A stretch of 64,000 nt of DNA from positions 64,001 to 128,000 of the IMG/VR virus record IMGVR_UViG_3300050821_010639; one strand, given 5' to 3'. Shown here piece after piece: positions 53,144 through 64,000 of this stretch. Position 1 is the first letter of the stretch, and each line of letters starts with the position of its first letter. The DNA comes from a virus. The position numbers and the translations under genes were made by a program. A model generated the notes under the pieces. It was not told the DNA's origin. It saw only the letters and a program-made list of their open reading frames with translations, and searched no databases.

Positions 53144-54007
53144 TCAGACGTACGCGTCCCCCCAGGCGAAGAGCGCGGTACCCGCAGTGACTGAGATCGA
53201 GTTGGCCCCCGGCAGCAAAGTCATCCACATCCGGCTGCCGATGTGGCCCAGGCCGCCGACCACGTTGTTGCCCACGGCGTCGAGCGCGGTGTAGCGCAGC
53301 ACGTCCACCGTGACCGGCCAGGACTGGACGCCCGCGCCCGTGTGAGAGAAGGCCACGCCGGCGGTGTTGTTGGTGACCGTACAGGCCTGGGAGACCGCGA
53401 CGGTAAAAGAGTTGATCGCGGAGGCGAACCCCTCGCCCACCACGCCCTCGCCGAGCGCGGTAATCGTGCCGCCGCCCGTGCCCACCACCTGCGACCGCTG
53501 AGCGGAGTAAAAGTAAGGGTCGCTGAGCAGCAGGTCCACGCTGAAAGCCGCGTTGGTCCGGCTGTTCATCGTCGGGTCCATGCTGCCGGCGATCTCGGCC
53601 ATCGCCGTGGAGGTGACCATGGTCGGCGAGCCGCCCTGGGTCAGCCACCAGTTGCGCTGCAGCTGGCCTTGCACGCTGCCCTGCGCCCCGCGGGTGAAGA
53701 ACAGCTGGCGGAGCATCTGGAAGTTGTCGTTGAACGCGCGGCGCGGGTCGCCCGCCGGGTACGGCTGGCTCGCCGACATCTGGCTGTCGGTCCACATGGT
53801 CAGCGTGATGGTGCGCTCGTCCAGGTACTTGCCCCGGAACAGCTGGCCGGAGCGGTAGGGCACCTCGTAGTCCTGGCCCCGGTTGGTGGGGACGCCGAAG
53901 CGGGAGCCGCCGAAAGTGGCCACGTTGTAGTAGCTGGACTGAAGCGGAATACCGTTCCAGTACCACATTTCCGCTGGCAGGTAAGCAGCTACCGGGGCAG
54001 CGACCAT
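53144..54007 (-). CDS. Distal tail (Dit-like) protein
   Basis: Directly after TMP; ERTITL, DPYFYS, LLPGANSI motifs. Confidence 0.7.
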   Translation of the reverse strand: MVAAPVAAYLPAEMWYWNGIPLQSSYYNVATFGGSRFGVPTNRGQDYEVPYRSGQLFRGKYLDERTITLTMWTDSQMSASQPYPAGDPRRAFNDNFQMLRQLFFTRGAQGSVQGQLQRNWWLTQGGSPTMVTSTAMAEIAGSMDPTMNSRTNAAFSVDLLLSDPYFYSAQRSQVVGTGGGTITALGEGVVGEGFASAINSFTVAVSQACTVTNNTAGVAFSHTGAGVQSWPVTVDVLRYTALDAVGNNVVGGLGHIGSRMWMTLLPGANSISVTAGTALFAWGDAYV

Positions 54008-57000
54008 AAGATCATGCCTCGCCCTCCGAGGAACGCAAGCCTGTTGGACGTCCGGGTAATCGAGTCCTCGGTAGCGGCAGGCCGCGGGTTGTTGATGGTC
54101 AGGGCGTCCACGTGCAGCCCCACCCGGGTGCTGGCCGCCCCGTCCGCCATGGTGCGCGGCATCTCCCTGGAGGCCGACGCCGACAGCTGGCGCGAGAGGG
54201 TAGCCGACATGCCGGGCACGAACAGGCTGGGCACCAGGCCGCCGGCCGCCATGCCGCCGCTGAACATCCCGGCCACGCCGGCCAGCCCCGGGACCTCGCC
54301 GCCGCCCGCCAGGCCGAAGCCCATGTTCCCGACCGCGGGCGCGGCCGGGCCGCCGACGATGAGCTTGTTCAGGTCGATGAGCGTGCCGCCGCCGGTCCCG
54401 CCCGGCCCGGAGGGGGCCCCTGGCGTGCCGGCCCCCCCTGTCCCGCCCCCGCTGCCACCGGAACCCGGAGCCGGGGTGAGCGTGGTGCCCCAGATGCCGT
54501 GCCACGCGTTGTAGGCGTCCACCACGTCTGCCTGGAACTTAGCCAGGTTCGACTGGATCGGGCTGTAGAGGGCCGGCTCCCTGGACTGGGCCAGCGTGGC
54601 CACGTCCATCGCCGCCTGCCAGCGGCGCACCGAGCTGTTGGCGGTCGACCACATCGCCGGGGTCAGCTCCTGCGGGTTCGTCTTCAGGTCGGTGAACAGC
54701 GGCGCGATGTAGCTGCCCGCCACCGACACCCGGTTCTCGATCGCCGCCCTCGTCGCCAGCCAGGACTTCCAGTCGGCGGCCGACACCCCGGCCGGCTGCC
54801 GGGTCCAGGCGTTCAGTGACTTCCACGGCTGCAGCGCGCCCTCCCAGTCCGGGTACAGCCGGGCCGCCTCGGCCTGGTAGGCGGCCACGTCGCCGGACGG
54901 GGCGGCTGACAGGCTCTGCCCGGGGGCCGGGGCGAGCATGTTCTGCACGGCGGTCCACGCGTCGGTCAGCCGGCCGGTGGCCGGGGTGCTCCAGTGCGTG
55001 CCGAGCGTGGTCGACGCCATCGCCGCCGCGTTGAGCGCGGCGTTCGCCGGGGTGTTCTTCCACGCCGACGCGGAAGAGCCCAGTACGCCCTTGGCGTAGG
55101 CCGGCTCCACCAGCCGGGCCGCCGTGACAGGGTCCTGGGCCTGCGCCTGGGTGAGGCCCTTGTGCTTGGCCAGGCTGAGGAGCCACGCGCCGTACTCGCC
55201 GTAGGAGGGGGCCGACCCGGCCGCGTTCTGCGCGGTCAGCAGGTACGAGCCGAGCGCCATCGCCTCGCGCGTGTCGGCGTTGGGGGTGGTCGCCAGGATG
55301 GCGGTCATCACCGGGCCGCCGCCCGCGTACCAGTGGTAGGCCTCCTCGTGCGCGAGCGCGCCTGCCGGGGTGCCGTAGCGCTGGGCCACGTAGTTGAGGA
55401 ACGCGGTCACCTGGCCCGCAGCGGTACCCGCGTTCCCCCCGTACTGGGCGTACTCGCTAGGCCCGTCAATGAACTGGGCAATGCCGTAGGCGTCCGACGT
55501 GGGGTTCTGCGCGTTGAGGTTCCAGCCGGCCTCGTCCATCTCGACCGCGTTCAGGTCGTCCCACAGCGCCCCGGTCCAGCCGCGCGCGGCTGCCATCGCC
55601 TTGGCCAGGGCCTGCACCTGCCCCGCCGACCCGCCGACCGCGTTCGCTGCCGTGGCCCCCGCGGTCTTCGCGACCGACGCGGTGGCCGCCGCGGTCTGGG
55701 CGGTCATCCAGGTGGCGACGCCGTTGTGGATGTCCTGCAGCCAGGCGGCGCCCATGTCGCCCGGCGTGCCGAGCGCCTCCAGCGCCTTCTCGGCAGGCAC
55801 CCCGGCGGCCGACCACATCGCGTTGAAGACGGCCTGCTCACCGAACGAGGCCACGTCCTTGGCCGCGCCGGCGATGCCGTCCCAGGCAGCCGACGCCGCG
55901 CCCTTCACCCCGGTGACCGCGTCACCTAGCCAGTTGGTGATGTTCCCGATGACGCCGCCACTGGCGTACCGGCCGTGCCCGGTGCCCCGCTGGGAGGCCG
56001 CGTTGCCGCGCGAGCCCGAGCCCAGCCAGGTGTCCGCCTGGTTGAGCTGGTCCATCACGTCCGGGCCGTAGGCGGCCTGCAGCGCCATCCGGGCGGGCTT
56101 GCGGACCATGAACTCGCCGCCCACGGCGACGATGTGCGTGCCGTCCTCGTCGCCGGTGCCGGGCACCGAGCCGGACACCGCGTGCACCGGGCCGCCGCCG
56201 GCCAGCTTGGAGATGGTGCCGATGTGCACGCCGACGATCGACGTCACCGAGTTGATCCACCCGATGACCGTGTTCAGCCCGTCGATGACGTGGTCAATCC
56301 CGCCCTTGAGGGAGTTCCACATGGCGTTCGGCAGGGTGGAGGTGAAGAAGTTCTCGATCGGGGTCAGCACGTCCCGGCTGAACGCCGACCAGGTGTTGGA
56401 CCAGGCCCTGGTGGCCGCCGCCGTGAAGCTGTCCCACCACTTGGGCACGTCGCCGGTGAAGAAGTTCTGCAGCGGGGCGAGCACCGTCTTGCTGAATCCG
56501 GACCAGACCGCGCTCCACGCCTTGGTGGCGTCCGTGGCCAGGCTGTTCCACCAGCTAGGGATGCTGCCGGTGAAGAACTTCTGCAGCGGGGCGAGCACCG
56601 TGGTGTCGAACGACTTGACGTTGGCGTTCCACAGGTTCACCCACCAGCGGCTGACGGAGTTGAACCAGCCGGGCACCGTGCCGGTGAAGAACTTGCCCAG
56701 CGGCTGCGCCACGTTGGCGTTGAACTGGGCGGCGGCAGGCCCGAACCAGATGTGCCACAGCTGGACCGCCAGCGCGGCGATGGCCTGGAACGTGGTACCG
56801 AAAAACGCCTTCAGGGCATTGAAAACCTGGATGCCCCACGACTGGATGTCAATCCAGGCCTGGTGCCAGTGGCCGGTCACCACGTCGAGCGCCACGGAGA
56901 TGATCGCGACCACCGTGTCCCAGGTGATCTTGGCTATCGCGACCACGGTGGCCCACGCGCCCTTGAACGCGAAAGACAGGATGTCAGCAGCGGACTTCGC

Positions 57001-60000
57001 AGCCTTTTCGACAAATCCGAAAAAGACTTCGGCTCCGAACTGAATCGTGGACCAGACAGCGGAGCCGGAGACCTTCAGCCACTGCCAGGCCTGCGCCCCG
57101 GATTCCCGCAGGCCCTTCCAGACGTAGCCCCAGGCCGAGGACCCGGCCGAGGACAGGAAGCCCCACGTCGCGGAGCCGGAGACCTTCAGCCACTGCCAGG
57201 CCTGTGCCCCGGCCTCCTGGAGCCCCTTCCACACGTCCCGGGTAAAGCTGTTGTCGGCTGCGGCCTGCATGACGTGCCAGAAGCCGGTGCCGGTGTCCTT
57301 GATGAAATCGAACGCCTTGACCGCAGCCCCGCTGATTTCGCCCCAGACGGTATCCCAGGTCGCCATGAGCGCCTGGCCGTGGGTGGCCCACCAGGGGTCG
57401 AAGTTGGAGGCGACCCAGCTGGTCACGTCACCGAACCCGCGTACCACCGGCGCCGCCACGTCGCGCCAGGTGTTGTTCCAGGCCGTGCCGAAAGCGTGCG
57501 GAACCGACTGGGTGAACCAGTCGAACATGCCGTCCCAGGCTGCCTCGAAGGTCCTCGCTACCGGGCCCCACACAGCGCCGAACCCGTGCGGCACCGACTG
57601 GGTGAACCAGTTGACCGCCCCGTCCCACGCGGACTCCACGGCGTGGACGGAGACCTTCGCCGCCTCCGGCAGGTCGTGCACGAAGAACTGGCCGATCGCG
57701 TGGTTCATGATCTCCAGGCCGCGCTGTACCTGGGGAATCCACGCGAGGAACGTCAGCTCGTAGAACGTGCCGTCTTTGAAGGACTTGAGCAGCGTGTCGA
57801 CCTCGCCCGGCTTGACCAGGTTCGCCGTAGAGCTGGCCGTTGCCGCCAGCTGGCCGCGCAGCTTGCTCAGGCTCGCGTTGTCAAGGTCGGAGACATCGCC
57901 CTTGGTGGCCTTGAGCTTGTCCTGCAGGGCCTTAAGCTCCAGGTCCTTGATCTCCGTCTCGACCTGGAGCTTCTTCTTCCCGGTCAGGCCCGGCAGCTCG
58001 GCCTTGAGCTTGTCCGCCTTCTGGAGTGCCTGGACCGCGTCCAGCTCGTAAGTGGTCTTGACGCTCTTCGGGAGCGCGGTGACCTGGACCCACAGCGCGT
58101 TCGCCTGCTTGGCGCTCAGCCCCATCGCCTCGCCGAAGCCCACGAAGTTGGCCTTGGCGCTCGCGCTGCTGCCGGAGACCGCGAGCAGCTCAGCGGCCAC
58201 GTTGTGCGCCGCCGCCGCGGTAGCGGCGCTGGACGGGCCGGACTTGGCCAGCGCGTCGGCGAACGTGTTGAAGACCGCCTGCCCGCCGTGGGCATTGAAG
58301 ATGGCGGCGGCCATCGCCGGGTTGAGCAGGCTCTGCAGGGTGTTAGTCAGCCGGGCCGCGTCCTGGCTCAGGTTGGAGGCCCCGATGGCAGCGTCGCTGC
58401 TGGCCTTGTACAGGGCCTGCAGCGGGTCGACGGCGTTGCCCACCCACTGCTGCAGAACCTTGATGTTGTCGGTGGCCGGGCCGCCCGCCTCCTGGGCAAG
58501 GGCGGAGATCTGGGCCGCGGCCTCCTTGCTGCCGCCGGCCATGGGGATGAGGGTGGCGACCGCGTTCTTGACGAACGCCGTGAAGTTGCCGCCGCCGGCC
58601 AGCGCCTGGGTGTTACGGAACGCGTCGAACAGCTGCTCGACGTTGTTGTAGTTGGACTGGAAGTCGTTCTGCAGGGTGATGCTGGGCCCGCTCAGCCCGG
58701 TCATCGCCGCGCCCGCCTTGGCGGCGTCGGAGTTGAACCCGGCGATGCTCTGCGCCAGGGTGAGGACGGCGGACGGGCCGCCGGCCACCGTCTTGGTGAA
58801 GGTGTCGTAGGCGGTGTTCAGCTTGCCCATCGAGGCGACTTGCGCGGAGTTCTCCAGGTTCAGCGCGTTCAGGTCGGAGCCGATGGCCCCCAGCTGCTGG
58901 CCCATCGCCTGGTACCCGGCGATGAGCCCCTTCACCTGCTGCTCAGCGGTCGCCCAGACGCTGGCCTGGTTGCTGAACAACTGGTTGGTGGTGACCCCGG
59001 CCGCGTTCAGCAGGCTCAGCGCGCCGACGAAGTTCGTCCCGTAGGCCTTGGAGACGTCGCCGACGTGGGTCAGCTCCTCCTGGAGCTTGCCGGACAGGTC
59101 CGACTGAGACGCGGCCAGCTCAGAGGCGTTGCCGACGCCGGTCTGCTGGGCCTTGTTGAGGGTGGTGGTGACCTCGGCCAGGTTGGACACGGTGGTGGAG
59201 ACCACCGTGAGCAGCGACGCCTTCTGAACGGCAGCGCCCATGGCATCGGTGAACTGCTTGGTCTGGTCGGCCCGGGTGCCCAGGTAGACGCCGACGGCGA
59301 TGAGCGCGGCGCCCAGCAGGCCGAGGTCCACGTAGACGTTGGACAGCACCGGGGCAAGGCCGCCGAGCATGGCCAGCAGCCCGCCCCCGCCGCCGACCGC
59401 CTCGGCAGCGCCCTCAGCGCCGGCACCCAGTTCTTCAGCCCCGGTCGCCGCGCCGCCCAGCTTCTCGGCCATCCCGGCCAGCTGGGTGTCGCTCGCGCCG
59501 GCGGCGATGCCCAGGGCGACCGACTTCTTGCCCGCGTCGTCCAGGCCCTCGCTGAACCTCTCCAGCCGGGCCGCCGAGGTGGTGCCGGCCCCGGCCACGA
59601 AGTCTTCGACGCTCTGCCCGGTGGCCTTGATGGAGACGGCGAGCTGGGCCAGCTCCTCCTCGCTGGCCTTGGCCCCGAGCGCGTCGGAAACCGCCCCGAC
59701 CTCGGCGCTGCTCCTGGTGATGTTGACCAGCTGGGTGTTGGTCGCGCCCAGCGCGCGGGCCACCGCCTCCGCCCCGGCGTTGAGGGCGGGGAACTTGCCG
59801 AGGAGCCCGGCCAGCCCGATGACCACCTTGCCCACCACGTCGGCGGCGAGCCCGCCCCACAGCACGATGGCGTGCAGCCCGAGGCCGGCGGCCAGCAGCG
59901 GGGTGGGGGTGACCTTAACGATGTCGGCAGCGATCTTGAGGATGAAGTCACCGATGACGGCCAGGTCCTCGGCCACGTGCGTGAGGGCCGTGGCCTGGAT

Positions 60001-62781
60001 GAACTTGGCGACGATGACGCCCAGGGAGTCGAACCCCTGGCCGATGAGCGCGAGGTCCCTGGCGCCGACCGCCAGGAAATTCTGCAGCCCGCCTCCGCCG
60101 CCTTGCAGGGCGACGACGACCTTGGCGGCGAACCTGTCCAGGTAACTGCCGGTCTGGTTGATGAGCTGGCCGAGGACGCCGGTCTTGTTGCCCGCCGCGG
60201 TCAGGTAGTCACCGAGCAGCTCGTAGACCTGCGGGCGGACCGCGTTCTCCAGCTTCTGGAAGTTGCTGGTCAGCGGCGGGATCGTGGTGTTAAGGGCATT
60301 GCCGACCGTGCTCAGGCTCTGCCACTGCTGGAAGATCTCCTTGAACGACTGGTAGCCGGCCGCGCCGAACGCGATGAGCCCGGCCCCTGCCGTGACCAGG
60401 GCGGGCACCCACAGGGCCAGCACCTCGACAACGCTGTCCAGCAGGATGTGCCAGAGGGCTACCTGGCCGATCATGTGCGTGTCGCCCAGCAGGCCCGACC
60501 ACAACTGGACCTGCGTCCGCAGCAGGCCGATGCGCCAGCCCATGTTGACGGCGGCGTCGCTGTCGGCCTTCATCGCGGCGGCGGCCTTGGCCGCCGGGTC
60601 GGCCAGCCCGCCGAGCCCGGCCTTGACGTCGTACAGGGCGCGGCCGGCATCGGTCGCGGACTGGTCCGCGTCGCGCATCGCCTGGGCGATCTGCTCCCAC
60701 GCGCGCGACTCGTCCGGGTCGGGCACGTCACCGCCGGGGTCGCCCGGAGGCGGCCCCCCGCCACCGCCGCCGCCGGAGGCGCCGCCCATGCCGGCGGTGA
60801 CGCGGTTCTCCGCCGCGCGTGCCTCTTCCAGCTCGCGGACCCAGCTGGCCAGCTCCGCCTTGGCCGCGTCGTCACCGAAGCTGGCGTAGAACTCGTACTT
60901 GCGCTGGACCGCCTCGATGAGCGCGCTCATCCACCGGGACAGCCCGCTCTCGGCGCCGGTGTCCTCGAAGTCGGCGCGGGTGCCCACCTCGCGCTCAATG
61001 TCCTGGATGTCGCGGCTGTAGTCGCGGACCTCCTCCGACGCGCCGCTGGAGTCAACCACCAGGATGGTGTCCACCTCGTGCGGGATGTCGCGCAGGCCCT
61101 CGTCCAGCCCCTCGGCTGCCATCCGGGCCTGCTCGACCTCCTCGAAGTCGACCCCGAGCCGGGCCTGCGCGTGCTCGTTCAGGTGCGCCAGCTCGCTGGC
61201 CAGCAGCTGGGCCTCGGTAACCCCCTGCACGAGGCTGCCGTCCTCGATCTCCGGGCGGGCCGGGTGGTCGTCCAGCCACTCCATCTCAACGGCGATCTTG
61301 TCCAGCACCTGCTCGGCTGCCGTGCCGCCCTGGACAGCTACCTTCTCAGTGGCCGTGCCGCCCTGCATGTACTTGCTCAGGCCGGACCACAGCTCCTCTT
61401 CCTCCGCCGGGCGGGCGACGACCTGCATGGGCGCGGGCACCGGGTAGCCGCGCGGGGCGTCGGAGATGACCCCCTCGCGCAGCGCCCCCGCGACGTCCTG
61501 CAGCCCGTAGAGGTCGGCGAGGTTCTGGTTGCGCTGCCCGGGAGTGACAGGAGCTGCCCGCTTGCCCCGGCCGCCGCGCTGCGGGACGAACCGGGCGCCG
61601 GCCTCCGACAGCAGCTGCTCGGCCGCGGCGAGCCGCCCCAGGCCCTGCTCCAGCGCGCGGGCGTCAACCGCGGCGAGCGCGAGCGAGTCCTGGAACTTGG
61701 CGATGGCGTCGGCGGAGACCGCGGTCTTGTCATTCAGCAGCGCCATCGAGCCCGCGAGCGCGCCGGTGCCGTCGGACGCGGCGGACAGCGCCTCTCCCGA
61801 CAGGGGGCCTGGTCCTGACCCGGTGACGGCCAGCGGGGCGCGCAGCGCCTCCGGGCGGGCTCCGGCGACCGCCTGGGACAGCGCGCGGTTGACCGCCGCG
61901 TAGTCGATGTCCGGCCGCACGGAGACCGGCACCGTGGCGTGCTGCGGCGTGAGCGGGACACCGCCGAGGCGCGAGGCCACCGACACGATGTCCACCCGCT
62001 CGGAGCCCGGCAGCCCGAGTAGCGCCGCCCGGTAGGCGGCGAGCTGCGACATCGCCTGGCCGTCATCGAGCACCGCCTTGGTGACCACCGTGTCCGGCAG
62101 CCCGACCAGCGCCGCGCTGTAGGCGTTGAGCGCGCCCAGCCCCTCGCCGAGGCTGCCCGCCGTGGCGTGCGTGCCCTGCAGCGCGTTGGCGTGCGCGAGC
62201 AGCAGCTGGGTCTCGGCGCTGATGGCCGCGCTGCGGTCGCGGATAGCCGCCGACAGCGAGGCGGTCTGCATGGTCTCGCGCTGCAGGAAGCCCAGGTACT
62301 GGTCAGCGGTCTGGTAGCCGGCGAAGTGCGCCCGGTTCTCCAGCAGGGCGAGGTTGTACATCTGCTGGCGGTAGGACATGGCCTGCTGGACCGAGGAGAA
62401 GCCGAGCCAGTGCTGCCGGTTGAGCAGGGTGGTGTAGTTCAGCTCCTGACTCAGGTCACTCAGGTGCTGGGTCATGTCGTTCCGGCCGCCGTACAGCAGC
62501 TGGGTGTTAGTCGACTTGGCCGACTGGGCCAGCTGGGACAGGGCCGTCGTCTGCTGCTGGATGGCCTGGACGTCCCTGGCCCGCGCGGCAGCCGCCTGGG
62601 TAGAGCCCGTCACCTCGGCCGCGGTCTCCGCCTTGACCGCGTCCGACATGCCCTGCAGCGCGGCCTTGGCCTCGGCCGCATCCCGCATCAGGCTGCCGAA
62701 GTCACCTGAATGTTAAACCGATCGCTTTGTAAATTACGTACCAAAGCGATCTAACCAATATTCTGGTCCCTCATAAGCCAC
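53989..62781 (-). CDS. Tape measure protein with C-terminal lytic transglycosylase domain; 5' end may need recoding
   Basis: 2899-aa Ala/Gly-rich ORF from 62688 with Trp-periodic repeats; EAGWNLNAQNPTSDAYGIAQF SLT motif; upstream extension to GTG 62781 inferred. Confidence 0.9.
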
Positions 62782-63505
62782 AGCTGCGGCTCAGAGGCTC
62801 AGAATAAGGCGTCATGAGCACCACCCCCTTCCGCATGAAGGGGCGCGAGCCCAGGTAATCAGGGAACCGCCAGGCCTGCCCGGTCTTTTCAGCCAGCCCG
62901 ACCATCTGGTTGCAGGCATGGCACAACAGCCCGCGAATGCACTTCTTGCAGCAGTGCGTCTGCCCGGACTTCTTGGGCGGGCAGCAATTGTGGTCGTGGT
63001 CTACACAGAGGTACACGACACCCTTGCGAGTCTCCGGGCCGCCGTGAAGGGCGCACACGCCACCCTGCTGTGCTAGCAGCCAGGCGTACTCCTCCTGCGT
63101 GATGCCCATGCGCTTGAGCGCCCAGGCCCGGTACTCGCCGTTCCGCCGGCCTTTACGCGGCTCGCTCCAGCACTCGGTGCACCGCGACATACGCCCGCCT
63201 GGCTGTGTCGGCTTGCTCAGGTGGTACTGCTCCCAGGGCTTGTACTTGCCGCAGCTAGAGCACTCGCGCCCGTCAGGATCAATGCGGAACCCAGTGCCTC
63301 GATGACGCTCGGGGACATACGCGGGAGTTGGTCGTGCATAAGTCCCTGGCTTGCGCCGGGGAATGCCGAACTTGTCCAGCCGGTACCAGACGGCGGCCTG
63401 AGAGCAGCCGATCTCAGCAGCGATGTCCGGTGTAGACCTGGCCTGACTGACGTACTGCTCGTGAAGCCAAGCCTTGTCGGCGAGCAGTGAGAGATTACGT
63501 TCCAT
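62771..63505 (-). CDS. Endonuclease VII-type HNH nuclease with N-terminal HTH
   Basis: CAL...VDHDH...IRGLLCHACN; lower GC than the flanks. Confidence 0.8.
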   Translation of the reverse strand: MERNLSLLADKAWLHEQYVSQARSTPDIAAEIGCSQAAVWYRLDKFGIPRRKPGTYARPTPAYVPERHRGTGFRIDPDGRECSSCGKYKPWEQYHLSKPTQPGGRMSRCTECWSEPRKGRRNGEYRAWALKRMGITQEEYAWLLAQQGGVCALHGGPETRKGVVYLCVDHDHNCCPPKKSGQTHCCKKCIRGLLCHACNQMVGLAEKTGQAWRFPDYLGSRPFMRKGVVLMTPYSEPLSRSCGL

Positions 63506-63538
63506 GCTCTCTACTACGTGCAAAGCTCTAGCCATCTC

Positions 63539-64000
63539 TCACCCTCCCCTCCCCGGCATCGGCGGCGGACCTCCCATAAGGCTTAGGAAGGCTTCATAGC
63601 TTCCGGCCCCGTTGTCCGCCTCCACCCCGGCGTCAGGGTTGGCGGCTACCTTGCCGAAGCGCGGGTCGTCCTCCACCCGGTCAGCGACCTTGGGGCCGCG
63701 GATGCGGTCAAGCTCCTGCTCCTCGGGGCTCTTGCCGCCGAAGATGTCGATGGACTGTGCCATCTCAACCAGCGGGTTCCTGCCGCCGGTCTTCGACGTG
63801 TCCACCATCGCCTGCGCCCCGATGAACTGGCACACCATCTTCACCTGCCACTCAGCCAGCCTCAGCCGGGCCTTGTTCTCCCGGCCGCGCCGCGACTCCG
63901 CCGCCTCCAGGCACTGCCGGACCCGGCACAGCGGGAGGCCTAGGACGTACTCGTCGGTCCACCCGTACTCGTGGCTGAGGACGTCGAACGCCGCCGCGAA
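63539..64000 (-). CDS. Tail assembly chaperone (partial, runs off the window)
   Basis: Open frame from the window edge FAAAFDVLSHEYGWTDEYVLGLP...; upstream of TMP. Confidence 0.6.
   Translation of the reverse strand, partial: FAAAFDVLSHEYGWTDEYVLGLPLCRVRQCLEAAESRRGRENKARLRLAEWQVKMVCQFIGAQAMVDTSKTGGRNPLVEMAQSIDIFGGKSPEEQELDRIRGPKVADRVEDDPRFGKVAANPDAGVEADNGAGSYEAFLSLMGGPPPMPGRGG

Follow-up and report, generated by a model that had tools for sequence, protein, structure and literature searches.

The window studied here, a 64,000-nucleotide stretch of viral DNA (positions 64,001 to 128,000 of the IMG/VR virus record IMGVR_UViG_3300050821_010639), harbours on its minus strand a tape measure gene that is preceded by a gene for an EndoVII-type endonuclease and, further upstream, by tail-assembly-chaperone genes (chaperone phrog_34893). 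The tape measure protein comprises 2899 aa and was assigned to phrog_58 (tail length tape measure protein, 1e-9); it includes a transglycosylase domain (phrog_12661), and its middle part matches annotated tape measure proteins. The endonuclease is of the homing type, and its gene has a GC3 below 0.8, the cut-off for listing coding frames. Its stop codon TGA (62773-62771) overlaps codons 3-4 of the tape measure gene, so that the putative tape measure start GTG 62781, which has no Shine-Dalgarno sequence, lies within the end of the endonuclease ORF. The last sense codon of the endonuclease gene is TTA; a fusion of the endonuclease to the tape measure protein through the terminal GGC-TTA-TGA was considered and found no support.

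Features at the start of the tape measure gene, with positions in the window
Feature	Position	Strand	Remarks
EndoVII-type (homing-type) endonuclease gene, 254 aa	62771..63535	-	Pfam PF02945 1.4e-12; phrog_2633 2e-23
Tape measure segment 1	62755..62781	-	GTG 62781-62779 and codons 2-9, the last being take-off codon TGG 62757-62755
Gap 1, 14 nt	62741..62754	-	TTA 62754-62752 first, landing codon TGG 62743-62741 last
Tape measure segment 2	62717..62740	-	codons 10-17 (Y V I Y K A I G), the last being take-off codon GGT 62719-62717
Gap 2, 13 nt	62704..62716	-	TTA 62716-62714 first, landing codon GGT 62706-62704 last
Tape measure segment 3	53989..62703	-	codons 18-22 (D F G S L), Met23 and remainder of the 2899-codon ORF
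Hairpin	62720..62751	-	5' arm 62751-62742, loop 12 nt, 3' arm 62729-62720

The layout of two gaps at the start of this gene, as described in an initial annotation, matches the letters of the minus strand to the base. Reading straight on soon leads to a stop, as had also been stated: into gap 1 a TAA follows at the seventh codon, into gap 2 a TGA at the fifth. Behind gap 2 the codons GAC TTC GGC AGC CTG (18-22) lead to ATG 62688-62686, the conserved Met23, which ORF callers pick as the start. Because an in-frame TAA is located at 62715-62713, there is no earlier ATG, GTG or TTG start in the frame of this ATG. The annotation had described ATG 62688 as having no clear Shine-Dalgarno sequence; an AGGTGA sits 13 nt upstream, which makes this claim weaker than stated. 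For the product of both hops the tryptic junction peptides AYEGPEYWYVIYK and AIGDFGSLMR are predicted.

Searching for homologues yielded 38 tape measure proteins, and 31 related tape measure loci formed the comparison set. Gaps are found in 20 of these 31 loci, at seven different codon positions, while 11 loci are ungapped. The ungapped relatives encode W-Y-V-I-Y-K-A-I-G-D-F continuously, just as the annotation had predicted, and their start codon lies at the same position as in the window. The view that hopping restores a plausible tape measure N-terminus is borne out by the ungapped locus L038, whose continuous N-terminus equals the 22-residue hop product apart from the GTG start; P0015/L009 differs from this product in one residue. 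Many homologues are indeed called from MRDAAEAK, an outcome which the annotation had regarded as contrary to its reading. These calls do not refute bypassing, because they stem either from gapped loci or from the ungapped L038, where the gene caller avoided an overlap. Assembly errors, the other worry, are excluded, because these gaps turn up again in metagenome assemblies made independently. A parsing script that permitted gaps only at an in-frame TTA resolved all 20 gapped loci to a 22-codon consensus-like peptide, with no other frame break in any locus. A second scan of IMG/VR using the alignment returned the same loci again. No close relative was found among isolated phages by megablast and tblastn of the region, which gave only distant tape measure and lysozyme matches; the nearest isolate by its portal protein is Microbacterium phage Magritte (50% identity). 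A scan of 185,579 prokaryote genomes revealed no prophage copy.

The gaps are not confined to the tape measure gene. Two further TTA-led gaps interrupt the portal gene of the same phage, where continuous homologues confirm them, and a gene for an HNH endonuclease is located directly upstream. The genome-wide scan for TTA-led gaps required at least 40 open codons on each side, and its hits, at genome positions 49718 and 50374, were merely ordinary junctions of overlapping genes; the portal gaps were missed because the scan is blind to gaps near gene starts, and they were checked by hand. Together the two genes provide 24 distinct gap alleles at ten positions, 18 from the tape measure gene and six from the portal gene. 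All 24 are opened by an in-frame TTA; the frame by itself would arise by chance with a probability of 3.5e-12, and composition predicts TTA at 0.4%. The landing codon equals the take-off codon in its first two bases in 19 of the 24 alleles (p = 1e-16). The other five, all from relatives and all in gaps of 4-7 nt, match poorly (AAG/TAG, GTT/GCC, TAC/AGC, ACC/GCC and ATG/CTG), so either looser re-pairing rules apply there or another mechanism does. The gap length ranges from 4 to 16 nt and is mostly 3n+1, and the TTA is followed by A or G in 20 of 24 alleles, which gives UAA or UAG at once in the +1 frame.

At the position of gap 1, which has 14 nt in the window, the homologous gaps measure 13 nt (L005), 16 nt (L020) and 11 nt (L034), and nine distinct alleles from relatives are known at the position of gap 2. 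Take-off and landing codons covary at the latter: in L020 and L034, which have Ala as residue 17, GGT...GGT/GGC is replaced by GCT...GCT, and the ungapped sister L035 has GCG at this residue. The codons interrupted by the gaps are under strong purifying selection, their pN/pS being 0.096 in the gapped loci and 0.07 in the six loci with two gaps versus about 0.3 for codons 24-53, at a pS of 0.5-0.7. Divided by segment, the six two-gap loci give 0.03 for codons 2-9 and 0.09 for segment 2. The comparison shows the anatomy of the gaps, their conservation, the covariation of their ends and the selection on the codons they interrupt. Loci with 71-91% identity over their gene bodies reach 95% in the gap region, and on the tape measure tree gapped and ungapped loci are intermingled, with the state switching between near-identical gene bodies.

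The annotation had also pointed to a hairpin across both sites, and both arms are present. Its 5' arm is the interior of gap 1 directly after the TTA, which is complementary to codons 14-16; these form the 3' arm, which ends just before the second take-off codon. The structure has 10 bp (MFE -15.2 kcal/mol, z = -2.6) and is kept in all six loci with two gaps, where 44 of 44 cells pair, including two compensatory pairs, compared to 25-45% in slid controls. For gap 2 no hairpin comparable to that of gap 1 was seen. A role of the hairpin as intrinsic terminator was rejected, as it has no T-run and the scan gave nothing terminator-like.

TTA is the rarest sense codon of the phage (0.55 per 1000). 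A tRNA-Leu(UAA) gene is absent from the 35 tRNA genes of the phage's own genome as well as from the arrays of 33-37 tRNA genes in five relatives; a difference in this tRNA between gapped and ungapped relatives was looked for, and none of them carries it. In the window a TTA also stands exactly where homologues carry the tape measure stop codon. In the host, decoding of UUA may be poor enough to make it in effect an unassigned codon, skipped within genes and possibly serving as a stand-in for a stop at gene ends.

In three relatives (L007, L036 and L014) a short ORF led by a Shine-Dalgarno sequence precedes the tape measure gene, with a TTA next to the tape measure frame (GAG-TTA-C-GAG; GGC-TTA-4 nt-GGC). 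An additional TTA hop joining this ORF to the tape measure frame was set aside in favour of plain termination-reinitiation coupling, which is simpler because the homologous ORF ends in a TAA overlapping the ATG in L041 and in a TGA without TTA in L022.

From these data we consider it likely that GTG 62781 is the start of the tape measure gene and that its codons 1-22 are read across both gaps by programmed bypassing. The best reading is bypassing of the type proposed for the phiHau3 terminase, here in a new gene, and the core of the annotation, two tandem UUA-linked bypass sites which restore the conserved N-terminus, is strongly supported by the comparison with relatives. The ribosomal mechanism is proposed by analogy with phiHau3 and with hungry-codon bypassing. 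At codon 9 peptidyl-tRNA(Trp) would sit on UGG with UUA, for which the phage supplies no decoder, in the A site. The empty A site would allow the peptidyl-tRNA to release UGG; the ribosome would slide over 14 nt, the tRNA would re-pair with the second UGG, and decoding would resume at UAC. Eight codons later the ribosome, with peptidyl-tRNA(Gly) on GGU, would meet the next UUA, slide 13 nt to the landing GGU and resume at GAC. If UUA were decoded instead, termination would follow 5-7 codons later. At least one of the two hops is probably helped by the hairpin, which may form on the A-site side during the first hop or refold behind the ribosome during the second. Since GTG 62781 has no Shine-Dalgarno sequence, a point that weighs against this reading, initiation would have to rely on coupling to the endonuclease ORF. 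Moreover, with nascent chains of 9 and 17 residues, two serial hops might have a low efficiency and often end in drop-off, and the five poorly matched alleles of relatives fit less well.

The simplest alternative is translation from Met23 (ATG 62688), with the upstream pieces being untranslated relics of a former N-terminus wrecked by endonuclease-borne insertions. This start is the one chosen by ORF and gene callers, Met23 is near-universal among the loci, and the AGGTGA precedes it. However, the supposed relics are more constrained than the coding sequence downstream (pN/pS 0.07-0.10 versus about 0.3), decay would not produce an in-frame TTA at every break together with mostly matching end codons in 20 loci, take-off and landing codons covary, and L020, a locus with two gaps, has Lys instead of Met at position 23. 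We therefore regard this explanation as very unlikely, although an N-terminally shorter product initiated at Met23 may arise in addition, which is compatible with bypassing. Removal of the gaps from the mRNA by a splicing- or editing-like step before translation seems more improbable still. The hairpin could in principle mark a site of RNA processing, but we know of no mechanism that excises segments of 4-16 nt from bacterial or phage mRNA, and the in-frame TTA in 24 of 24 alleles and the matched landing codons make sense only to a translating ribosome. Just as improbable is ordinary programmed frameshifting (+1 or -1), which would add 4-5 residues per site. Although the -1 frame is open through gap 1 of the window and most gap lengths are 3n+1, the four lengths of gap 1 would need opposite directions and therefore no single frameshift direction serves all of them, and for 20 of 24 alleles a +1 shift would run at once into UAA or UAG. 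Slippery heptamers are missing, the junction residues are invariant in the ungapped homologues, and the portal allele in L086 is already in frame (15 nt) but contains a TAG. In phiHau3 a +1 shift could not at first be excluded; there, the junction peptide and a test with a +1-frame stop both favoured bypassing (PMC10732093).

Accepting bypassing as the preferred reading, the purpose of the gaps has to be considered separately. An EndoVII gene or its remnant is found upstream in 12 of 20 gapped but in none of 11 ungapped loci (Fisher p = 0.0014, uncorrected for relatedness). In the remaining 19 loci it is absent, its occurrence is scattered on the tape measure tree, and in L040 it is reversed. 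In addition, both gapped genes of the phage are located directly behind a homing-type endonuclease gene (EndoVII for the tape measure gene, HNH for the portal gene). The best-supported idea on purpose, which we put forward tentatively and slightly short of an even chance, is that the gaps belong to, or respond to, the upstream endonuclease cassette. They would disrupt the nuclease target at the gene's conserved 5' end, and would be tolerated as the tape measure gene could still be read by hopping and the protein is needed at few copies per virion. Against this, eight gapped loci have no endonuclease nearby, and the phiHau3 terminase gene has none adjoining. Going one step further, and with some more reserve, the TTA-led gaps could serve as the protective part of homing-endonuclease cassettes spreading through a clade of actinobacterial phages of about 150 kb, a second independent invention of the MobA/gene 60 kind. 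Such a pairing of nuclease and bypass may rest on a starved sense codon instead of a stop codon and a nascent-peptide signal, and in each genome two or more virion genes, portal and tape measure included, may be affected. The annotation had favoured another purpose, namely gating of tail production by the bldA tRNA and hence by host development. This is not supported: that the gaps track an adjoining homing-type endonuclease gene suggests a different reason for them. In this view the gaps would be a selected sensor tying tape measure synthesis to the host UUA tRNA (bldA) and to development, which we think rather unlikely. Such a model has been proposed for the phiHau3 terminase (PMC10732093), tRNA-Leu(UAA) is avoided throughout the clade despite 33-37 tRNA genes, and gaps persist in the eight loci without endonuclease. 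However, no link to Streptomyces was found in the prokaryote genome scan or in the tape measure and portal matches, close relatives do without any gap (11 of 31 loci), and gaps accompany endonuclease genes in two separate genes of the phage. The spread of positions over seven codons and the switching between near-identical gene bodies resemble a conflict with mobile nucleases more than a sensor. Should there be gating, it is a shortage of the UUA decoder, not a plentiful supply, that would lead to full-length protein.

Few known departures from standard decoding are as rare as programmed translational bypassing, for which the examples are T4 gene 60, the yeast mitochondrial byps and, as a candidate, the phiHau3 terminase. 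The latter case has remained largely unnoticed according to its own authors (PMC10732093). The gaps described here would turn three isolated terminase cases into a family with 24 natural alleles in two further genes. These alleles represent a ready-made mutational series, and therefore the rules of hungry-codon bypassing become directly testable. The link of short sense-codon hops to homing endonucleases also bears on the question why coding gaps arise at all. Furthermore, gene callers truncate such genes, calling the tape measure gene from Met23 and the portal gene from an internal start, and the true N-termini would go unrecognised by pipelines that annotate high-GC phages.

The precedent for UUA-linked bypassing in Streptomyces phages, to which the annotation had referred, is real and concerns the phiHau3 terminase (PMC10732093). 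Candidate bypassing linked to UUA has been described for the large terminase of phiHau3 and of the StrepC.1 and S. catenulae prophages (Smith et al. 2013; Antonov et al. 2023, PMC10732093), and in E. coli mass spectrometry detected a phiHau3 junction peptide from a version carrying UAA in place of UUA (PMC10732093). The phiHau3 sites read GGC-TTA-4 nt-GGT and TCT-TTA-4 nt-TCC, with gaps of 10 nt. Both systems share an in-frame UUA right after the take-off codon, a short frame-shifting gap, two gaps per gene, landing codons synonymous with the take-off codons, homologues that are continuous and uninterrupted, and a low-copy protein as product. They differ in the gene, which is the terminase there, while here the tape measure and portal genes are affected; in the position of the gaps, here within the first 20 codons; in the lineage, here a clade of uncultured phages of about 150 kb that have 33-37 tRNAs; and in gap length, 7-10 nt there versus 13-14 nt here and 4-16 nt in the relatives. 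A covarying hairpin joins gap 1 to the downstream coding sequence only in the present case, the 24 natural alleles compare to three in 100 terminase genes, and homing-type endonuclease genes are associated with the gaps here, whereas none adjoins the phiHau3 terminase gene.

In hungry-codon bypassing in E. coli (Gallant and Lindsley, as summarised in PMC10732093 and bioRxiv 10.1101/2022.08.31.505936) a starved A-site codon likewise lets the peptidyl-tRNA slide over a few to tens of nt to a matching codon. By these summaries it is a low-level laboratory error induced by starvation, whereas here bypassing would be the obligatory and conserved route to an essential virion protein. The mitochondrial byps of Magnusiomyces capitatus, as outlined in PMC10732093, resemble the present gaps in that essential genes contain many short inserts which are bypassed, take-off and landing codons match, and the inserts show signs of mobility. 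They are described there as eukaryotic mitochondrial inserts of 27-55 nt with unassigned codons other than UUA. In phage Corndog a homing-type nuclease gene occupies the same junction between chaperone and tape measure genes, and its authors raised ribosome bypassing as a possibility; unlike here, no TTA-led gaps were described, and the puzzle is a missing start codon for which ACG initiation is an alternative.

The closest parallel for the link to endonucleases is T4 gene 60, in which a 50-nt bypass is associated with a MobA homing endonuclease cassette (Bonocora et al. 2011, via bioRxiv 10.1101/2022.08.31.505936). According to the same account, the gap shields the phage that carries it against the nuclease, and in some relatives the gap has outlasted the nuclease, as in L005 and L039 here. 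Going by that account, common to both systems are matched take-off and landing codons, an A-site codon that is, or here would be, slow to decode, and a gap that follows closely on a free-standing homing endonuclease gene. In T4, so far as it is described there, a stop codon in the A site and a gap of 50 nt stand against the sense UUA and 13-14 nt here. T4 has a stem-loop that begins at the 5' edge of its gap; the hairpin of the present phage, a possible counterpart, starts right after the first TTA, with its 3' arm in the downstream coding sequence and a loop of 12 nt. A nascent-peptide signal as in gene 60 is unlikely, because the nascent chain counts just 9 and 17 residues at the two take-off sites, which hardly allows a signal spanning the tunnel. 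Finally, the nuclease here is of the EndoVII type and not MobA, and protection from cleavage is in this phage only a candidate function of the gaps.

Every base and coordinate that the initial annotation had assigned to the two gaps at the start of the tape measure gene was confirmed by re-reading the sequence. Each gap is a non-coding block led by TTA, which a bypassing ribosome would skip by moving its peptidyl-tRNA from the last codon before the gap (take-off codon) to the gap's closing triplet (landing codon). Straight reading leads to stops as had been claimed, TAA after 7 codons in gap 1 and TGA after 5 in gap 2. Five codons separate gap 2 from ATG 62688, the codon of a conserved methionine (Met23) at which ORF callers start the gene; on the upstream side TAA 62715-62713 blocks its frame. 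Other phages have annotated tape measure proteins that match the middle part of the tape measure ORF. The predicted tryptic junction peptides of a hopped product would be AYEGPEYWYVIYK across hop 1 and AIGDFGSLMR across hop 2.

Features of the gapped tape measure and portal genes and their neighbours (window positions unless marked genome; L045 is the portal region of the record)
Feature	Position	Strand	Remarks
Tail assembly chaperone gene	about 63940-64551	minus	upstream of tape measure; phrog_34893
Second ORF, other frame than chaperone	63539-63844	minus	downstream of chaperone gene
EndoVII (Endonuclease VII-type) gene, 254 aa	62771-63535	minus	between these two ORFs and tape measure ORF; PF02945 at 1.4e-12; phrog_2633
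Tape measure segment 1	from GTG 62781	minus	nine codons, last TGG
Tape measure gap 1, 14 nt	62754-62741	minus	opens TTA, closes TGG
Tape measure segment 2	between gaps 1 and 2	minus	eight codons ending GGT
Tape measure gap 2, 13 nt	62716-62704	minus	opens TTA, closes GGT
Tape measure ORF, 2899 codons	53989-62688	minus	tail length tape measure profiles, transglycosylase domain
HNH endonuclease ORF	genome 149882-150556 (L045:2083-2757)	minus	directly upstream of portal; phrog_8446 at 8.6e-15
Portal gene (Portal_Mu)	from ATG, genome 149875	minus	outside window
Portal gap 1, 7 nt	genome 149803-149797 (L045:1998-2004)	minus	ACC-TTAAGCC-ACG, landing GCC
Portal gap 2, 10 nt	genome 149706-149697 (L045:1898-1907)	minus	GGC-TTAACCT-GGT-GTC, landing GGT

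The N-terminal 400 residues as query retrieved 38 tape measure homologues of 1900-2950 aa; almost all are metagenomic, and contigs of about 150 kb carry many of them. About fifteen of them start with continuous M/V-AYEGPEYWYVIYKAIGDFGxL followed by MRDAAEAK, which is the very peptide that the initial annotation had derived for a hopping ribosome. At the DNA level 31 distinct loci were compared, reading in each the 130-240 nt preceding the conserved Met; 11 are ungapped and 20 gapped. The ungapped locus L038 has an N-terminus identical to the hop product of the window, and its gene call begins at Met23 only owing to an overlapping upstream ORF. With a parsing script that permitted a gap solely at an in-frame TTA, all 20 gapped loci yield a 22-codon peptide near the consensus, and this TTA-only script met no frame break of any other kind in the 31 loci. 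Gaps are found after codons 8, 9, 11, 13, 14, 17 or 20 and measure 4, 5, 7, 10, 11, 13, 14 or 16 nt; that they are an assembly artefact is poorly supported. Seven relatives (L014, L043, L022, L008, L007, L036, L041) have, 20-50 nt ahead of the tape measure start, a strong GGAGG-type site and after it a short ORF (about 10 codons), which ends on or just past the start codon (TAATG, GTGA, ATG...TGA) and in some cases terminates with TTA-TGA. This arrangement looks like termination-reinitiation coupling.

The portal gene of the same phage is also gapped, and its three segments are continuous in homologues. The spacing in 49 related loci assigns 7 nt and not 10 to portal gap 1, for which the related locus L049 has a perfect ACC/ACC match. 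Two other gaps are present in the portal gene of L061, and that of L086 has an in-frame gap of 15 nt with TAG inside. ORF callers would start the portal gene of the present phage at an internal codon.

In total 24 distinct gap sequences were counted, 18 from tape measure and six from portal genes. TTA opens all 24 and continues the reading frame of the codons before it; base composition predicts TTA at 0.4%, and the frame alone has a chance probability of 3.5e-12. The landing codon matches the first two bases of the take-off codon in 19 alleles (p = 1e-16), the five exceptions all being gaps of 4-7 nt. TTA is followed by A or G in 20/24 (p = 8e-4), creating UAA or UAG in the +1 frame, and Antonov et al. 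obtained twofold more recoding by adding a +1-frame stop (PMC10732093). Many gaps have C-A/T-G-G at their end, either inside the landing codon or immediately ahead of it. The purine after TTA or this C-A/T-G-G could be a bypass signal. As the strongest single item among these sequence comparisons we regard the covariation of take-off and landing at codon 17, which reads GGT...GGT or GGT...GGC in most loci and GCT...GCT in L020 and L034, both of which have Ala as residue 17; L035, the ungapped sister of L020, has GCG here.

That ribosomes hop over the tape measure gaps is in our opinion quite probable, because these frame-dependent rules can be sensed only by a translating ribosome and because there are precedents in phiHau3 and at hungry codons. 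Removal of the gaps from the RNA is poorly supported. So is frameshifting across the gaps, since homologous gap-1 lengths of 14 nt (window, L001, L039), 13 nt (L005), 16 nt (L020) and 11 nt (L034) fit no single shift direction; a hop to the matching codon fits them all. Also poorly supported is a start at Met23 only, the choice of the ORF callers, and this internal start is absent in L020, which has Lys-Lys-Gly in place of Met-Arg-Asp. Like the anatomy and the recurrence of the gaps, selection on the interrupted codons is directly observed. By Nei-Gojobori counts, for which sequence pairs are not independent though the effect is large, the 21 N-terminal codons of the 20 gapped loci have a pS of 0.72 and a pN of 0.07 (pN/pS 0.096), compared with a pN/pS of 0.17 for the N-terminal codons of ungapped loci and about 0.3 for codons 24-53. 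In the six loci with two gaps the ratio is 0.07, and 0.03 for codons 2-9; these loci have homologous gaps in common, therefore their divergence arose with the gaps already present. Alongside the hopped tape measure there may be an extra Met23-initiated isoform, which could be made by ribosomes that terminate at the TGA within GGT-GAC and then reinitiate.

The hairpin noticed in the initial annotation is present, with arms at 62751-62742 and 62729-62720. Base-pairing between the interior of gap 1 and codons 14-16/17 recurs in each of the six two-gap loci (MFE -15 to -20 kcal/mol, z -2.1 to -3.9). In the six-locus alignment 44/44 cells are paired, with two pairs changed on both sides, against 25-45% in slid controls; drawn from five distinct sequences, this covariation is moderate evidence. 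The 5' arm starts right after TTA and the 3' arm stops just before the second take-off codon, and we infer that the hairpin may aid hopping.

The whole record, of which the window represents bases 64001-128000, comprises 152,046 bp with 69.6% G+C and 35 tRNA genes. TTA is the rarest sense codon: a rough collection of 213 ORFs (45,339 codons) uses it 25 times, or 0.55 per 1000, and five of the 25 fall in the last five codons of an ORF. Nearly all homologues end the tape measure with ...GGRGM(I/V)-stop; the window has TTA (54007-54009, minus strand) at this stop position and its ORF is five codons longer, up to TAG 53989-53991. The positions of TTA at ORF ends hint at a nearly stop-like behaviour of UUA here. 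The tRNA array (genome 3336-8466, minus strand; also in loci L098-L102) is conserved across the clade with 33-37 genes and decodes other rare codons: Lys-UUU, Arg-UCU, Glu-UUC, Gln-UUG and in one case Ile-UAU. A tRNA-Leu(UAA) is absent among the 35 genes of the record and from the arrays of five relatives (33-37 genes each), whether the tape measure is gapped or not. The developmental gating of tail production put forward in the initial annotation is still hypothetical; the host is not known to be Streptomyces, and the evidence favours a conflict with a mobile nuclease as origin of the gaps.

The chaperone gene and the ORF behind it resemble the usual tail-chaperone pair, whose ORFs are linked by programmed frameshifting. 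EndoVII follows, with a GC3 below 0.8, the cut-off used for listing coding frames. Its last sense codon, directly before TGA, is TTA (62774-62776, minus strand), lying within tape measure codons 2-3 (GCT TAT), though in a different frame; if a ribosome stalled on it, the start codon of the tape measure would be covered. A site scan of 62500-63700 found no promoter-like or terminator-like sites. The HNH ORF terminates at the ribosome-binding site that precedes the gapped portal gene, thus both gapped genes lie directly behind a homing-type nuclease gene. When tblastn was run with the EndoVII protein on the upstream 1.5 kb of every tape measure locus (some flanks being short), the gene or a remnant was detected in 12/20 gapped and 0/11 ungapped loci (Fisher's p = 0.0014, not corrected for relatedness). 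The relatives' genes are 37-72% identical to that of the window, and the one in L040 is in reverse orientation. Gap state is scattered on the tape measure tree (residues 23-217), and near-identical gene bodies differ in it (window vs L003, L020 vs L035, L007 vs L014). Over its 93-nt gap region the window shares 95% identity with L001 and L039, compared with 71-91% for the gene bodies, and codons 1-17 of the two-gap loci have AT-ending codons unusual for the genome. These patterns in the sequences favour an origin of the gaps in a conflict with a mobile nuclease.

At the level of an association of genes and gaps, they agree with the description of T4 in a preprint citing Bonocora 2011 (bioRxiv 10.1101/2022.08.31.505936), where MobA travels together with the gene 60 bypass as a single mobile cassette and the gap shields from the nuclease. 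According to the same preprint, some T4 relatives lost MobA and kept the gap; this is paralleled by L005 and L039, which keep both gaps with an internally deleted EndoVII remnant some 45 codons long (the first six codons joined to the C-terminal tail; L039:1260-1500 and the upstream region of L005). In mycobacteriophage Corndog an HNH gene is likewise inserted between chaperone and tape measure, its tape measure expression being unexplained (PMC4351075). In a full-text search the single paper of direct relevance was that of Antonov et al. 2023 (PMC10732093), which mentions no tape measure or portal cases. It describes UUA-led gaps in only 3/100 terminase genes, two of 10 nt in phiHau3 and 7-nt gaps in two prophages. 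For the phiHau3 terminase, mass spectrometry in an E. coli system where UAA replaced UUA detected a junction peptide, and a full-length product was observed in Streptomyces; the authors regard their own evidence as supportive, not as proof (PMC10732093). We rate the tape measure gaps as a variant of a known, still barely documented recoding, of high value since their natural allele series makes the bypass mechanism testable. The phiHau3 record reads GGC-TTA-CTCC-GGT and TCT-TTA-ACGG-TCC, the same gap design as in the tape measure gaps described here.
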